A stretch of 32,000 nt of DNA from Psychrobacter cryohalolentis K5 (GTDB lineage Bacteria; Pseudomonadota; Gammaproteobacteria; Pseudomonadales; Moraxellaceae): assembly GCF_000013905.1 (NCBI RefSeq), contig NC_007969.1, positions 270,001-302,000 of the forward strand. Reading direction: 5' to 3'. The notes beneath the pieces were generated by a model. That model saw nothing but the letters and a program-made list of their open reading frames with translations. It made no database searches and had not been told where the DNA came from. Positions within the stretch are counted from its first letter, which is position 1, and each line of letters starts with the position of its first letter. The position numbers and the translations under genes are program-made. This document shows, piece by piece, positions 24,834-30,082 of this stretch.

Positions 24834-25358
24834 TTATTTGACAGCGATACATTCAACTTCAACGCTGGCACCTGCCGCCAATTCAGCTACGCCAAAAGCT
24901 GAACGGACGGGATAAGGCTTTGCCAGTTCAGCCTTATAGATTTTATTGAAGTCATTAAAATCGTCCATATCGGTGAGCATCACCATACACTTAACGATAT
25001 CTGACTTTTGGTAACCATATTTCAATAACGTAGTATTGATATTATCCATTGTCTGTTTGGCTTCGGCTTTAACACCGCCTTTGACCAGCTTGCCATCTTT
25101 AAAGCCAATCTGACCAGACATATACAAAGTATCGCCGACACGGACTGCTTCTGAGAAAGGATAATTGCCGCCGTCACCTAAAAACACAGGGCTAGACTTA
25201 GTGATAGTTGCTCCATGATGTGTATGAGTTGAAGTTTTTTCGGGCGCAGCAGTGGCACTAACGGTAAATCCTAATGCACAGATACTGATAAGAAAAGCCT
25301 TGGATAAATTAGTAAGCGCTGTTTTAGAAATAGCTTTGGAAATCATTTTGGACATCAT
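24834..25358 (-). CDS. RidA/YjgF/Rid-family protein with N-terminal signal peptide
   Basis: The C-terminal ~125 aa show the YjgF/RidA pattern (GDTLYMSGQIG ... VKCxVxLxDMxDFxxxNxxY ... PxRSAFGVAxLxxGAxVEVECIA). The N-terminus has a K-rich n-region, a hydrophobic core and an SATA-AP cleavage-like site. AAGGAG SD upstream. Confidence 0.78.
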   Translation of the reverse strand: MMSKMISKAISKTALTNLSKAFLISICALGFTVSATAAPEKTSTHTHHGATITKSSPVFLGDGGNYPFSEAVRVGDTLYMSGQIGFKDGKLVKGGVKAEAKQTMDNINTTLLKYGYQKSDIVKCMVMLTDMDDFNDFNKIYKAELAKPYPVRSAFGVAELAAGASVEVECIAVK

Positions 25359-25501: not shown

Positions 25502-26218
25502 TTACTTAGTTTCTACTTTTGCGTCTGTTTCTACTTCTACTACTTTGGTATGAGACTCAGTATCAGCCTCTGCCGACTTTTCATTAGCTTTGCCTTGACG
25601 ACGCGCTTCTAACTCAGACTTAGGTATCCAAGCCCATGTCATCTCGACTACGATTGGGTCGCGATCACTGTCCGACTCACGGTCATGAATGACACATGGA
25701 ATAATCATTTCGCCTTTCGGAGTATTTAAAATATCTAAACGCTGCTCATCAGATAAGCTTGCGATGGCAGCCATTTGTCCTTTTTTAATCGGTCGATAGA
25801 AATTCACTGAATAAGACTTAATCAATAGTACACGATCAGCAGGTAAGTTTAAGCCTAAAATGAATCCCGTTGCCGTTTCAGCAAGCAAAGTAATGGCAAC
25901 TGCATGGACGGAGCCGATATGGTTTTGCACCGCTTTGGTATTATTTAAACTGACCACCACTTGGTTTGGCTCGACCGTTTCATAGTAGATACCCGTTGTG
26001 CCCACATAAGGTACTACCTTACCAAATGCTTTCGATAAAATGCTCGAACGTGCACCAGCAGGTAAATATTTGGTGATAGATAACAGTTTGGTAAATTGAT
26101 TGCTGATTGGTTTAAGTGTGCTATTGGTTTTTTCGACTGCAGGTTTTGTGTTCTCAGAGACTTTGGCTGGCAGTTTATTGGTCCGTTTGATCGGGAGTTT
26201 TTTTAATAATCCTGACAT
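25502..26218 (-). CDS. Hotdog-fold (DUF4442 / PaaI-thioesterase-like) protein with basic N-terminal and charged C-terminal tails
   Basis: The central ~130 aa (NHIGSVHAVAITLLAETATG ... SYSVNFYRPxKKG) resemble the DUF4442/YiiD C-terminal hotdog family. GAGGAA SD upstream. The assignment is by pattern only. Confidence 0.5.
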   Translation of the reverse strand: MSGLLKKLPIKRTNKLPAKVSENTKPAVEKTNSTLKPISNQFTKLLSITKYLPAGARSSILSKAFGKVVPYVGTTGIYYETVEPNQVVVSLNNTKAVQNHIGSVHAVAITLLAETATGFILGLNLPADRVLLIKSYSVNFYRPIKKGQMAAIASLSDEQRLDILNTPKGEMIIPCVIHDRESDSDRDPIVVEMTWAWIPKSELEARRQGKANEKSAEADTESHTKVVEVETDAKVETK

Positions 26219-26466
26219 ACAATATTCCTCATTTAAGTGGGATTTACAATGCTAATGATACTAGGGTTAAAAGGCTCATGGTATAAATGAGTCACCGAAT
26301 AGGCTTTATGCTAGCAGCTATTTTAGTTATGGTACATTAACTGCTCAGTCGCTACTATTATTACCATGTACTGCTGCGCTTACAAAATAACAGTGACGTA
26401 ACGGCATCTTAGGCGTTAGTAATTTAAGCACTGATACCCTGTAGAGCGAGTAACTATAATGATAAA

Positions 26467-27963
26467 ATGTTAGCGCTTTTTCATACTTTTTTGTTGGATA
26501 ATGTTATGCCTGATATGTGTGATGATAAGCCGACCAATATTATTTATACGGGCGTCGCGGGTACTGGTAAAACCTACCGATTGCTCCAAATTTCTAAAGA
26601 ATATACGGACTATCTGCCTAAATCCAATAATGAGGATTTACTCAAGCAGTTATTGCAAGAATTGAACTGGCGTGATGTGGTGTGTTTAATATTTTTAGAT
26701 TTTCAGTCGCAAAAACAGGACTTAGTAAAAGTACCTGAAATCGTTAATCATGAGTTTTTTATCGCCAAAGCATTACAAAACGCACGTGAGAAAAATTTAA
26801 GTAATACAGCGTGGTCTGTACTGCAAATGCACAGTCCAACCAGCTCACAGACGGTTGCGTATAAAAATAGAGCCAGCCAAGCGTATTTTGATAAAGACCC
26901 TAGCGGTGCGTGGTATTTACTGCCTGACAGCCTGATGCTATTAAGCGAATTGTCAGAGCAATTGTCAGAATTTCAGCAGGCGCAACGTGATAATAGTGCC
27001 AGCCAAACTCAACGCTTTAGCCAACAGCGCTTTAGTATGGTCAGTTTCCATCAGGCATATGGCTATGAAGAGTTTGTCGAGGGCATTCGCCCGGTAATGG
27101 CAGCTTCTAATCAGTCGAATAACAGCTCATCTCAAATGAGCTATGCCATTACTGATGGCGCCTTTTTAAAGCTCTGTCAGCGCGCGGCAAATGATCCTCA
27201 GCAGCGTTATGCGATGCTGATTGACGAGATTAATCGTGCCAACGTCTCACGCGTTTTTGGTGAATTGCTCAGCCTTATTGAACCTGATAAACGAGCAGGT
27301 ACGCCCAATGCGATGACAGTAAGTTTGGCATACTCTGGGCGAGCGTTTAGCGTGCCTGCCAATGTTGATATCTATGCGACCATGAATACCCAAGATCATT
27401 CGTTAGCGCCACTAGATATGGCACTGCGTCGTCGTTTTCGCTTTATTAACTGTCCGCCGCAGCCTGAGCTATTACCGATTATCAACCTCAATAAAGGATT
27501 AGAAATAGTCGACGAAGCGGAGTGCATCAATTTAGCCAAAGTATTAACGGGTTTAAATCATCGTATTAGCCAAACGTTAGGGATTGAGGCGCAAATGGGT
27601 CATGCGTTTTTATTCTCCGTGCATAGTCTTGAGCAGTTACAAATGGCACTTACTGAGCAAATTATTCCACAATTAGCCCAAGCAGCTGGCGGGCAAGTGG
27701 CTGTCTTGCAGTATATTTTTAGAGATGAACAGCAGCCAATATCGGCACAATTTATTCATGATAGTCAAACGTCAATACATAACGGTATGTCCACTCAAAT
27801 GGCTAGCGAGAATGGTATAGCTTCTCAGAACTCCATGTTTGCAGGACAGCAATCCTATTTTACTCAATCTATAAATGCCGGCAGTTATGCAATTAATACT
27901 GACCTTATTGCCAATACTGGCAAGTTCACCCAGCTTGCCGTCTATCAGCGCTTATATCCATGA
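26467..27963 (+). CDS. McrB-like AAA+ NTPase (type IV restriction GTPase-subunit homologue), atypical architecture
   Basis: Walker A GVAGTGKT (26551-26574), FHQAYGYEEFVEGIRP (from 27046), Walker B LIDEINRANVSRVFGELLSLIEPDKR (D253 at 27223), MNTQD (27382-27396) and RRRFRF are all McrB-family signatures. There is no N-terminal DNA-binding domain. An alternative start is the ATG at 26506. Confidence 0.85.
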   Translation: MLALFHTFLLDNVMPDMCDDKPTNIIYTGVAGTGKTYRLLQISKEYTDYLPKSNNEDLLKQLLQELNWRDVVCLIFLDFQSQKQDLVKVPEIVNHEFFIAKALQNAREKNLSNTAWSVLQMHSPTSSQTVAYKNRASQAYFDKDPSGAWYLLPDSLMLLSELSEQLSEFQQAQRDNSASQTQRFSQQRFSMVSFHQAYGYEEFVEGIRPVMAASNQSNNSSSQMSYAITDGAFLKLCQRAANDPQQRYAMLIDEINRANVSRVFGELLSLIEPDKRAGTPNAMTVSLAYSGRAFSVPANVDIYATMNTQDHSLAPLDMALRRRFRFINCPPQPELLPIINLNKGLEIVDEAECINLAKVLTGLNHRISQTLGIEAQMGHAFLFSVHSLEQLQMALTEQIIPQLAQAAGGQVAVLQYIFRDEQQPISAQFIHDSQTSIHNGMSTQMASENGIASQNSMFAGQQSYFTQSINAGSYAINTDLIANTGKFTQLAVYQRLYP

Positions 27964-27975
27964 GGATGTTAATCG

Positions 27976-29472
27976 ATGATAAATACGCATAAGCACACTC
28001 AAAGCTCTGAAATGAATATCATGACGGTATTTGAACATCAGCGTTTAATAGCGTCTAATTTCTTGTACGACTCTGATTTTCAGTGGCTGATAACCCAAGA
28101 GCTGTCAGTATTTAGTATTAAACGCAAGCAAGGACAGTGGCAACTCAAGGTTGGACATTATATTGGCGTGATTGTACTGCCTAGTGGCATGACTCTTGAG
28201 ATACTGCCAAAATTTATCGCAAACACTGCTAGCAACTCTATTAAGCAGCCATATCAGTCAAATGAATCACCAGTAGATGCGGATATTGTACAAACCCGTC
28301 ACTGGGTACAAAATATGCTGTCAGACCTAATGAACAGTAATGATAACAAATCGCCTCACAGCAAAAATTTTAGGCAATTCAGCCGCCAGTTGACAGCGCT
28401 GCCAGTCACCACATTGCCTTTATCAGATTGGCTCAGTATGCAGCTTTTGCAGCGTTTAACGAATTATCAACCGACCAAACAGTATCAAACCCAAATCCAT
28501 AACCAAGCAGCAATTCAAGGACGTTTACTCATAAAAGAGCAATTACGCCATAACAGTATGCAGCCACATAAATTTGTGTGTGAGCGCAGTGTGCTGAACC
28601 AAGACATGCTAGGCAATCGAGTCATTAAGAGCGCATTAACACTGCTGAGGCCTTTGTTGCCCCAATCAAATCTGCTTTTACATTTACAGCCATGGCAGCA
28701 AGTGTCTGTCCTACATCAGCATGAAATACGCCAGCTAGAGTCGATATACTTTCAAGCAAAGCGTGAACTTGCCATTCAGCCGCTGCAAGCAAAGCAATTA
28801 CAAGCCGCCTTGCAACTGGTAGATTTCGCTTATTGGCTGCTTAGTCAATCAAATATGGAAATCGGTCATAGTATTAATGCACCAAAACCATTTGGTAGTA
28901 GATCTACACCGCCACGCTTATGCTTACTGATAGATATGAATCAAGCGTTTGAGCAATGGGCAGGCCAGCGTATCGCTTTGTCTTTTCAGCAATTAAGCGA
29001 CGACTATAAACCATTATTCCAAGCGCAACGTGTTTGGCTTAATGATGCAGAAGGGCAGGCGTGTTTGTCTATTCGCCCTGATTTATTGATTTATCGCCAG
29101 ATGCGTTCGAATACTAAAAATAAAGAGAAGCATGATGATACTTTACCAATAAAGAATTTACGAGCAAATCCATCACCAGAAAAACAAGCAGGTCAATATA
29201 GTCACGTGATCGATATTAAATGGAAGCCTTTAGCGCATGCCAGCGCCATTAGTGCCAGCGACGCTTATCAACTGAGCAGCTATGCGCAGGCTTATCAAGC
29301 AGAGCAAGTCTGGCTGGTATATCCAGTGCAAGATAATCAAAGACGAGCGGTTGTATTAAAGCAAGATACTCAGGACATATACAATAGTGAAAATGCACCC
29401 TATGCTCAGTTATGGCTGATACCTTTTAATGTGCTCACAGGTACGATAAACATTGACTTGCTTCCGACATAA
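27976..29472 (+). CDS. McrC-like nuclease subunit
   Basis: GAGGA SD 8 nt upstream, 12 nt after the mcrB-like stop. The N-terminal VGxxIGVIxLPSGxTLEILPK block and NRVIKSALTLL resemble E. coli McrC (NRIIKSTLAIL). PD (D369, 29080) ... DIK (D413/K415, 29212-29220) forms a PD-(D/E)xK motif, followed by AYQLSSYA (compare LYQLMNYL). Confidence 0.8.
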   Translation: MINTHKHTQSSEMNIMTVFEHQRLIASNFLYDSDFQWLITQELSVFSIKRKQGQWQLKVGHYIGVIVLPSGMTLEILPKFIANTASNSIKQPYQSNESPVDADIVQTRHWVQNMLSDLMNSNDNKSPHSKNFRQFSRQLTALPVTTLPLSDWLSMQLLQRLTNYQPTKQYQTQIHNQAAIQGRLLIKEQLRHNSMQPHKFVCERSVLNQDMLGNRVIKSALTLLRPLLPQSNLLLHLQPWQQVSVLHQHEIRQLESIYFQAKRELAIQPLQAKQLQAALQLVDFAYWLLSQSNMEIGHSINAPKPFGSRSTPPRLCLLIDMNQAFEQWAGQRIALSFQQLSDDYKPLFQAQRVWLNDAEGQACLSIRPDLLIYRQMRSNTKNKEKHDDTLPIKNLRANPSPEKQAGQYSHVIDIKWKPLAHASAISASDAYQLSSYAQAYQAEQVWLVYPVQDNQRRAVVLKQDTQDIYNSENAPYAQLWLIPFNVLTGTINIDLLPT

Positions 29473-29603
29473 GATTTAGCATAATATGCGCTTAGCTCAT
29501 AAGGCACTATGTTGAGTAGCGCTTGTTGTCGACGCTTAGTTTATAAGAAATAAGCCTTTTTTAAATAATTTAGCAGTTATTTCAAATTAATTAAAAATAG
29601 GTG

Positions 29604-29632
29604 TTGACACCATCGGCGTTTCCCCTTAATAT
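29604..29632 (+). promoter_or_regulatory. Near-consensus sigma-70 promoter of the tRNA operon
   Basis: TTGACA (29604-29609), a 17-nt spacer, then TAATAT (29627-29632). It is preceded by an AT-rich UP-like tract and followed by a GC-rich discriminator (GTGCACCTCG), about 80 nt upstream of tRNA-Pro. Confidence 0.6.
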
Positions 29633-29720
29633 GTGCACCTCGATAGCAAGGAACGTTAGCCAGTTAGTGGCATTGCCAATAACCAGTTAATCAACAAACT
29701 ATCGTGTTAATAGAGAATTT

Positions 29721-29797
<77 letters not shown>

Positions 29798-29889
29798 TCT
29801 ATTTAAGAGCCTTACAGGCTTTTTTTTATGTATAATGGTTTGGTTTCTTGTATATCAAGCGGACCAAAATATGTAAAAGTCCTCTAAGA

Positions 29890-29966
29890 GCGCCTGTAGC
29901 TCAGTTGGATAGAGCATCTCCCTTCTAAGGAGGTGGCCGCAGGTTCGAATCCTGCCAGGCGCACCA
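29890..29966 (+). tRNA. tRNA-Arg (anticodon UCU)
   Basis: GCGCCTG/CAGGCGC acceptor stem, anticodon loop CTTCTAA, GGTTCGAATCC T-loop, CCA end. Resembles E. coli argU. Confidence 0.93.
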
Positions 29967-30005
29967 TTTAGCCTGCATATATTGCCGAATTTTGGCAACA
30001 GTTAT

Positions 30006-30082
30006 GGCGGTTGTAGCTCAGTTGGTAGAGCCCCGGGTTGTGATCTCGGTTGTCGTGGGTTCGAGTCCCATCAGTCGCCCCA
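30006..30082 (+). tRNA. tRNA-His (anticodon GUG)
   Basis: Extra G at position -1, the hallmark of tRNA-His. Anticodon loop TTGTGAT, GGGTTCGAGTCCC T-arm, CCCA 3' end. Confidence 0.92.

Follow-up and report, generated by a model that had tools for sequence, protein, structure and literature searches.

The McrBC restriction system of Escherichia coli K-12 (PDB 6hz4, 6ut6, and 7vsr) is encoded by a two-gene operon in which mcrB lies upstream of mcrC, an arrangement shared by the Psychrobacter cryohalolentis K5 locus that is the subject of this analysis. This locus is located within a stretch of 32,000 nucleotides (NCBI RefSeq assembly GCF_000013905.1, contig NC_007969.1, positions 270,001 to 302,000 of the forward strand), which is referred to here as the window and to which all coordinates below apply. 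The account of McrB-family architectures given in PMC10602043 is confined to N-terminal reader or effector themes. Bell, Koonin et al. (eLife 2024, PMC11090510) noted that McrB GTPase domains often hold insertions, which were considered likely specificity domains and were removed before tree building; the main text of that paper was found to give no position, fold, boundaries, or distribution for these inserts, and literature searches combining McrB with insertions or winged helices yielded no closer description. Here, we describe a domain inserted within the AAA+ core of Psychrobacter McrB, which is evidently one of the insertions noted by Bell et al., define its position, predicted fold, and distribution, and tentatively propose an accessory role for it in DNA contact.

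A domain inserted between alpha1 and beta2 of the McrB core

The longest open reading frame (ORF) of mcrB in the ORF list extends from an ATG at 26467 to 27963 on the forward strand (498 amino acids [aa]), and its residue numbering is used throughout; the numbering of the AlphaFold2 (AF2) models equals that of the ORF minus 13. The features which define the gene and its insert are as follows.

26506..27963, forward strand: mcrB-like GTPase gene (from the ORF list, with AAA_5 and NCBIfam McrB profile matches at residues 182-383)
26551..26574, forward strand: Walker A/P-loop GVAGTGKT (residues 29-36), followed by helix alpha1 (KTYRLLQISKEY) (from the translation)
26614..27015, forward strand: inserted domain, residues 50-183 (~133 aa), between alpha1 and beta2 (skipped by the PDB and NCBIfam alignments)
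27028..27075, forward strand: strand beta2 and McrB motif RFSMVSFHQAYGYEEF, residues 188-203 (from alignments to 6ut3 and 6hz4)
27211..27237, forward strand: Walker B region AMLIDEINR, with D253 and E254 (from the translation; invariant in relatives)
27385..27396, forward strand: McrB GTPase signature NxxD, N307-T-Q-D310 (from the translation; invariant in relatives)
27427..27435, forward strand: consecutive arginines R321-R322-R323 (RRRF; arginine-finger region) (from the translation; invariant)

Judged from these motifs, the encoded protein is an McrB-family AAA+ GTPase. The Walker A residues G29, G32, T33, G34, K35, and T36 are invariant across 138 relatives, the NxxD element conforms to the GTPase signature defined for McrB in PMC11090510, and the consecutive arginines, which are invariant in relatives together with F324, represent an McrB-specific feature described in PMC10602043. 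Pfam AAA_5 matches residues 182-324, and the NCBIfam profile of E. coli McrB aligns residues 184-383 with profile positions 222-411. Orthology to E. coli McrB itself (NCBIfam NF008457) fails, the score being 116 bits against an equivalog cutoff of 637 and the match being limited to residues 184-383. Membership of the CoCoNuT/NxD clade, whose McrB proteins are defined by an NxD variant of the signature and by long coiled-coil fusions (PMC11090510), is likewise not indicated, as the motif is NxxD (NTQD) and the protein has no coiled-coil fusion and only a single 26-residue helix.

The full-length AF2 model, for which the input alignment comprised the window protein, 10 Psychrobacter homologs, and 127 distant relatives, has a mean predicted local distance difference test (pLDDT) score of 89.3 and a predicted template modeling (pTM) score of 0.77. 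When this model was searched against the PDB with Foldseek, the best matches were the AAA+ domains of Thermococcus gammatolerans McrB (TgMcrB) and E. coli McrB (EcMcrB), at E values of 1e-20 to 1e-14 (TgMcrB, 1e-20; EcMcrB, 1e-16), with MoxR/NorQ behind at 1e-6. The fit to the H2-insert/pre-sensor-1 hairpin clade of AAA+ proteins is taken from this superposition. These PDB matches were to the AAA+ core only, and no solved structure containing the insert was among them.

An earlier note on this DNA, made from the sequence alone, had claimed an insert of about 130 aa inside the McrB AAA+ core, and the alignments bear this out. In the phmmer alignment to TgMcrB, query residues 10-42 correspond to chain residues 11-43 and query residues 185-241 to chain residues 53-102; the skipped stretch spans 143 residues in the query versus 10 in TgMcrB, which leaves ~133 extra residues between alpha1 (residues 22-32 in model numbering) and beta2. 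The E. coli McrB structures align from query residue 184 onward only. The spacing between K35 of Walker A and F194, which the same note had put at about 158 residues, was measured at 159, versus ~27 in TgMcrB; for E. coli K-12 McrB, whose sequence from KAPQRVNMVQFHQSYSYEDF onward is shown by the PDB alignment, we take the value to be 25. The intervening DNA, 26575-27045, encodes ORF residues 37-193 (YRLLQISKEY...QQRFSMVS), lying between Walker A and F194 of FHQAYGYEEF. Homology to insert-less McrB proteins resumes in the beta2 region, where F194 and H195 are invariant in relatives, and insert-bearing relatives have the insertion at the same site. Canonical AAA+ insertion sites are the beta2-alpha2 site, the helix-2 insert, the pre-sensor-1 insert, and the pre-sensor-2 insert (Jessop et al. 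review, PMC7973254); the alpha1-beta2 site falls outside this list and is thus noncanonical.

The segment is no fortuitous or low-complexity enlargement. Within Psychrobacter, the insert is conserved as strongly as the rest of the protein. Across the 138 diverse relatives, the tryptophans W68 and W149 do not vary, and conservation reaches at least 90% at each of V89, W116, L119, V130, F141, and K143. In the family alignment, position 101 is Lys or Arg in 82% of sequences and position 135 in 97%, K143 being retained in 98%. Further conserved polar or basic positions are R107, K109, T114, Q120, H122, and S127, and such positions cluster on the third helix, the loop which follows it, and the hairpin. 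Relative to the query, identity averages 35% over the insert, 52% over the catalytic core, and 26% over the lid; the insert has evolved as a component intrinsic to the enzyme, at a rate between those of the catalytic core and the lid.

Predicted fold of the insert

Two structural parts of the insert were distinguished in the AF2 models.

26626..26922, forward strand: winged-helix-like core of the insert, residues 54-152 (from DSSP assignment of the AF2 models)
26923..27000, forward strand: long acidic exit helix, residues 153-178, leading back to the AAA+ core (from the AF2 models)

The full-length model assigns pLDDT values of 92-98 across the insert, with helices (model numbering) at 42-50, 55-68, 76-80, 83-91, and 98-108, a hairpin of strands 128-130 and 136-138, a helix at 140-165, and strand beta2 at 176-180. 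In ORF numbering, the core consists of helices 55-63, 68-81, 89-93, 96-104, and 111-121, a loop at 122-140, and a hairpin formed by 141-143 and 149-151; its conserved residues are W68, K101, R107, T114, W116, Q120, H122, S127, R135, F141-D-K143, and W149. The exit helix, which appears at 140-165 in the full-length model and at 104-130 in a model of the insert alone, carries a mean net charge of -3 in the family. Because the model built from the insert only (ORF residues 50-180) reaches a pLDDT of 95.1 and a pTM of 0.89 with the same elements, the insert is judged to be an autonomously folding domain rather than a loop.

This prediction bears directly on the possibility that the segment is an expanded disordered loop, or that a frameshift or misassembly artifact hides an N-terminal domain. 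The Q/S-rich character of the end of the segment and the low-complexity stretches found elsewhere in Psychrobacter McrB and McrC would favor such an explanation. The models instead show a folded domain at high confidence, its sequence has been retained in more than 120 Psychrobacter clusters and 299 distant representatives, no break interrupts the reading frame, and a conserved divergent gene stands 248 bp upstream. A loop or an artifact is, accordingly, refuted and given virtually no weight. The Q/S-rich stretch, which the earlier note had read as a linker, does exist; most of it, however, forms the end of the predicted 26-residue exit helix, model confidence dropping only at about residues 174-183.

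The class of the fold was addressed by Foldseek searches with the insert, in which no significant match was obtained (best E value, 0.14 in the PDB and 0.44 in BFVD) and the query-normalized template modeling (TM) score did not exceed 0.46. By reading of their descriptions, most of the top 50 PDB matches are winged-helix proteins, with a similar scatter in BFVD; the neighbors include the MarR family, FOXN1, IclR, DtxR, TFE-alpha, eS19, and the phosphorothioate-DNA-binding domain of Hga. The match to FOXN1 (forkhead) has a target-normalized TM score of 0.67-0.70 and a probability of 0.85. An order of helices, hairpin, and long helix is compatible with a winged helix having a long conserved loop before the wing. 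The order of elements and the dominant structural neighbors fit the winged-helix-like pattern suggested in the earlier note, although no match is statistically significant, and on the strength of the models a divergent winged helix is somewhat favored as the fold of the insert. The other candidates that had been raised, EVE/PUA, YTH, and SRA-like folds, are beta rich and do not suit a mainly alpha-helical domain with one hairpin; none of them was matched by Pfam or appears among the structural neighbors, and no similarity to the ADAM fold was seen in the Pfam scan or among the Foldseek neighbors. Pfam (to an E value of 10), NCBIfam, and PADLOC contain no family covering the insert, with weak matches to Caps_synth (E = 0.02) and to the SspF P-loop only.

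Distribution of the insert and its relation to N-terminal readers

The insert alone was searched against 1.84 billion protein cluster representatives (50% identity clusters), matching at least 299 of them at an E value of ≤1e-3 and 44 at ≤1e-10. All matches inspected are McrB-like, and the insert directly follows Walker A wherever both motifs could be found by pattern. The distance from Walker A to FHQ is 148-165 residues in nearly all insert-bearing relatives, rarely reaching 179. Of the 150 that matched best, 121 place more than 120 residues ahead of Walker A (median, 347), and only 14 full-length proteins have no N-terminal region. Pfam analysis of 58 members with an N-terminal region identified EVE in 6 and MrcB_N (the ADAM/DUF3578 reader of E. 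coli) in 1, the remainder matching no named family. Insert identity between the window protein and relatives with N-terminal regions is 33-43% (tblastn).

Variovorax defluvii and Geobacter sp. OR-1, among the matches listed, carry the insert, each with McrC encoded downstream and type I restriction-modification (RM) genes nearby; these came from a contig scan with generic AAA+ motif patterns, which provides no basis for prevalence. A 691-aa McrB paralog of E. coli has the same alpha1-beta2 insert and an adjacent McrC family protein (CP054241.1, L007:4179-7533; ATCC 25922, NZ_CP009072.1). Its gene, which is distinct from K-12 mcrB, is present in 1,056 of 5,426 complete E. coli genomes (~19%) and is often split by IS3/ISEc52 elements.

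Window McrB has no N-terminal modified-DNA reader (ADAM/DUF3578, EVE, YTH, or similar), Walker A beginning at ORF residue 29, or residue 16 from the likely start. The upstream gap (26219-26466) measures 248 bp and is bounded by a divergent DUF4442 gene (25502-26218, reverse strand) which is syntenic in Psychrobacter arcticus and Psychrobacter alimentarius. The earlier note had also ruled out an upstream ORF as the source of a reader, and this holds; Psychrobacter homologs begin at MPDM, residue 14 of the ORF. A hidden or frameshifted N-terminal domain was considered and rejected, given the continuous reading frame and the conserved divergent gene as upstream neighbor.

When neighbor-joining trees were built from shared columns, the reader-less proteins, namely, those of Psychrobacter and 11 metagenomic representatives, formed a single bipartition in 50 of 50 bootstraps. 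The sisters of this clade, the metagenomic proteins P0127 and P0131, have N-terminal regions of ~175 residues, that of P0127 matching no Pfam family; this region could be the reader which is absent from the Psychrobacter lineage.

These data allow an assessment of the claim that a target-recognition domain was grafted internally, as the insert, and has taken over the task of the missing N-terminal reader. The absence of an N-terminal domain and of room for one upstream, the folded, winged-helix-like nature of the insert, the speculation of Bell et al. that insertions in the GTPase domain encode specificity domains (PMC11090510), and a weak Foldseek match to the Hga sulfur-binding domain on phosphorothioate DNA (rank 24; E = 1.3; probability, 0.08) all speak for it. 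Replacement is nevertheless unsupported, because the same insert, at the same site and of the same size, coexists in 121 of the 150 best relatives with long N-terminal regions, which include recognized EVE and ADAM readers. McrB specificity modules are, moreover, variable and interchangeable, whereas the insert is fixed in size and site and conserved in sequence; the reader-less state is limited to one clade; and no resemblance of the insert to EVE/PUA, YTH, SRA, or ADAM folds was seen. A grafted reader is consequently regarded as improbable. From the sequence comparisons, the insert is instead an old, constitutive hallmark of a widespread McrB subfamily, in which it measures ~125-135 residues and coexists with N-terminal regions, and the Psychrobacter clade simply lacks such a region; the insert is not a one-off substitute for a reader.

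Proposed role of the insert

That a real, folded, subfamily-wide insert occupies the alpha1-beta2 site is close to certain. The full proposal, in which this insert additionally serves as an accessory DNA-contact element, is given a probability of roughly 45%. The insert would be a constitutive part of the motor ring that serves as an accessory module for nucleic acid contact, present in one copy per protomer and, as general AAA+ topology suggests, probably located on the outer rim. It would hold or guide the DNA, with modification specificity being conferred in relatives by the interchangeable N-terminal domain, and in the reader-less Psychrobacter McrB it would be the only DNA-engaging element. 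Through its tethers to alpha1 and beta2, substrate binding could in turn influence the P-loop and the turnover of GTP.

The proposal is based in part on the reader-less clade being apparently under purifying selection with intact Walker A/B, NxxD, and RRR motifs and an intact PD...DxK motif in McrC, which implies that some DNA-binding element is needed. McrC fills the central pore in the solved McrBC complexes, and whether DNA threads the pore is unclear (PMC7973254); occupation of the pore by McrC would leave room for a peripheral DNA-contact module. The conserved polar and basic positions listed above fall on the putative recognition helix, the loop after it, and the wing, and Bell et al. 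likewise surmised that insertions in the GTPase domain encode specificity domains (PMC11090510). The core of the insert is near neutral while the remainder of the protein is strongly acidic (net charge of 0 versus -9), which was counted in favor of DNA contact, although a net charge of ~0 is uninformative as a test of DNA binding.

Several points weigh against this proposal. Every structural match to the insert is nonsignificant (best E value, 0.14, as above), so that the winged helix is a fold-class impression, and a profile of 31 diverse insert sequences retrieved only a chance match to McdB (E = 0.61) from the PDB sequences, with no detectable relationship to known winged helices in either this search or Pfam. 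Neither Lys nor Arg is conserved on the putative recognition helix, and the insert as a whole is not basic (median pI, 6.75). Many winged helices mediate protein contacts. Finally, the literature search found no binding experiment for any member of the insert family.

Some of these points fit an explanation in which the insert serves protein-protein contact or regulation: its partner would be a neighboring protomer, McrC, the N-terminal region, or another hexamer, and it would tune assembly or GTPase stimulation instead of binding nucleic acid. Retention of the insert whichever N-terminal domain is present is what would be expected of a structural part of the machine, its invariant residues are mostly tryptophans and other hydrophobics, and its near-zero charge, the acidic exit helix, and the lack of any conserved basic residue on the putative recognition helix point the same way; winged-helix domains often act in protein interaction. 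Such a module would, however, leave the reader-less clade with no recognizable McrB DNA-binding element and an McrC that carries no extra domain, even though both genes are apparently under purifying selection, and it does not account for the strong conservation of the exposed-type polar and basic residues R135, K143, K101, Q120, and H122. A protein-contacting or regulatory insert, the main rival, is on balance considered less likely, and accessory DNA contact is retained as the preferred role.

A bolder version of DNA contact would make the insert a substrate sensor of a hitherto unrecognized class inside the motor, a winged-helix-like domain tethered to the P-loop helix and the edge strand, whose binding of DNA, a particular DNA structure, a modification, or even RNA would gate GTP hydrolysis allosterically; in the reader-less Psychrobacter clade it would be the sole specificity determinant, and the McrBC pair may have shifted from classical anti-phage restriction to a genus-wide housekeeping or surveillance role. 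Little likelihood is attached to this version.

Start and C-terminal tail of McrB

Two further features were noted at the ends of mcrB.

26431..26460, forward strand: promoter-like site consisting of CTGATA, an 18-nucleotide (nt) spacer, and TATAAT (from a consensus scan; ends 6 nt before ATG 26467)
27796..27873, forward strand: Q/N/S-rich disordered tail segment, residues 444-469 (pLDDT below 50 at model residues 431-456)

The close homologs of the window McrB share 72-97% identity with it, and all named ones are from Psychrobacter species. Most of these Psychrobacter proteins are 479-500 aa in length and begin at MPDM, which corresponds to residue 14 of the ORF. Because of this shared beginning, and because the promoter-like site ends only 6 nt before ATG 26467, the ATG at 26506 is probably the real start (485 aa), and the first 13 codons of the longest ORF (26467-27963) are probably untranslated. 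Promoter-like sites in the region are not more numerous than shuffled expectation, and the site lends the 26506 start weak support.

The Q/N/S-rich segment of the tail varies in length within Psychrobacter. It is followed by a conserved, confidently modeled stretch of ~29 residues ending in VYQRLY (tail and stretch together, window 27796-27960). PF28529, which had been precomputed on all homologs, was first suspected of being a model of the insert and proved to be McrB_lid, which covers the C-terminal lid.

The McrC partner and genomic context

The partner gene and its nuclease motifs are positioned as follows.

27976..29472, forward strand: mcrC, 498 aa, 12 nt downstream of mcrB (Pfam McrBC, E = 5.5e-34)
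29074-29082, forward strand: RPD, first half of the McrC PD-(D/E)xK motif (intact)
29212-29220, forward strand: DIK, second half of the McrC PD-(D/E)xK motif (intact)

When McrC is aligned with homologs from Psychrobacter, Geobacter, and E. coli, residues R367, P368, D369, D413, and K415 show no variation, and, judged from the intact motifs of both proteins, the window McrBC pair is predicted to be competent as a GTPase and as a nuclease. In Psychrobacter McrC proteins, an insertion of ~30 low-complexity residues (RQMRSNTKNKEKHDD...; window 29095-29196) intervenes between PD and DxK; the Geobacter and E. coli homologs lack it. The Pfam McrBC match begins at residue 57 of McrC, as it does in the Geobacter homolog, and at residue 59 in that of E. 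coli. An extra reader domain in McrC was considered and rejected, since the additional length is Psychrobacter-specific low complexity and the N-terminal 56 residues are common to McrC proteins of normal size in the insert family.

The locus, composed of the divergent DUF4442 gene, mcrB, and mcrC, is common to P. arcticus and P. alimentarius. In the window, where the region concerned spans 25502-30082, mcrBC is followed directly by a tRNA-Pro/Arg/His cluster; the contigs of the other assemblies end soon after mcrC. Identity to P. alimentarius amounts to 93.5% for GspE, 87% for DUF4442, 75.6% for McrB, and 63.1% for McrC; the mcrBC identities to P. arcticus and P. alimentarius track those of the neighboring genes, with McrB and McrC evolving faster. 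The shared locus and the tracking of neighboring genes suggest that mcrBC has been vertically inherited under purifying selection in Psychrobacter. Vertical, genus-wide conservation of this kind is unusual for a restriction system.

An ORF at 24834-25358 on the reverse strand matches in position the Ribonuc_L-PSP (RidA-like) gene of P. alimentarius, to which it is only 67% identical, and its product starts with a hydrophobic, signal-peptide-like N-terminal extension, MMSKMISKAISKTALTNLSKAFLISICALGFTVSATAAPEK.

Comparison with known systems

Like the E. coli K-12 proteins, window McrB possesses the Walker A/B, FHQxYxYE(D/E)F, NxxD, and RRRF motifs, and window McrC combines a DUF2357/McrBC domain with PD-(D/E)xK. 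The AAA+ core of E. coli K-12 McrB superposes on the window model (Foldseek E value, 1e-14 to 1e-16; 32-34% identity). Unlike its K-12 counterpart, window McrB lacks the ADAM/DUF3578 reader, has the ~133 extra alpha1-beta2 residues, and ends in a Q/N-rich C-terminal tail; the Psychrobacter genes also differ in occupying a fixed chromosomal site, apparently by vertical descent, rather than an obvious defense island.

A likeness also exists to the insert-bearing paralogs, i.e., the 691-aa protein of E. coli, those of V. defluvii and Geobacter sp. OR-1, and EVE-fused metagenomic proteins, in which the insert occupies the same site, McrC is adjacent, and the Walker A-to-FHQ spacing is ~154-157 residues. 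These paralogs differ from window McrB in that Walker A is preceded by 150-750 residues, which include EVE in some cases and MrcB_N in one and are mostly unassigned, and some of them, unlike the window locus, adjoin type I RM or methyltransferase genes. E. coli also makes a natural short isoform, McrB-S, which resembles Psychrobacter McrB in consisting of the GTPase module with no DNA-binding domain. McrB-S is a modulatory by-product of a gene which also makes full-length McrB, whereas the reader-less protein of Psychrobacter is the only product of its gene and carries the extra insert.

With respect to fold, the predicted order of helix, helix, helix, and hairpin in the insert is compatible with that of the MarR and forkhead winged helices and of those in the AAA+ proteins ORC/Cdc6, MCM, and RuvB. 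In the latter group, the winged helix is appended after the lid and not placed between alpha1 and beta2, and the insert also departs from known winged helices in its conserved 19-residue loop between the third helix and the wing. With regard to the view of Bell et al. that such insertions are likely specificity domains, the present data speak for this one being constitutive and conserved, and not a variable module.

The insert is a domain that is missing from every domain library searched and from the solved structures, and it marks a very common McrB subfamily. Database entries named McrB family protein hide this unannotated domain, which merits a family model of its own. The insert offers a widespread and tractable handle on the question of how McrBC engages and moves along DNA, for which the 691-aa E. 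coli paralog is a convenient experimental model. If the insert contacts DNA, the ring would have a second interface for its substrate that does not depend on the N-terminal reader, and the reader-less Psychrobacter enzymes would provide a clean minimal system; if it mediates assembly or regulation, a widespread restriction motor would possess a control element that is as yet unstudied. The kind of system encoded in the window is thus known, and insertions in its GTPase domain have already been noticed; the insert itself is uncharacterized, and the reader-less, insert-only architecture of Psychrobacter McrB is a variant of the McrBC theme.

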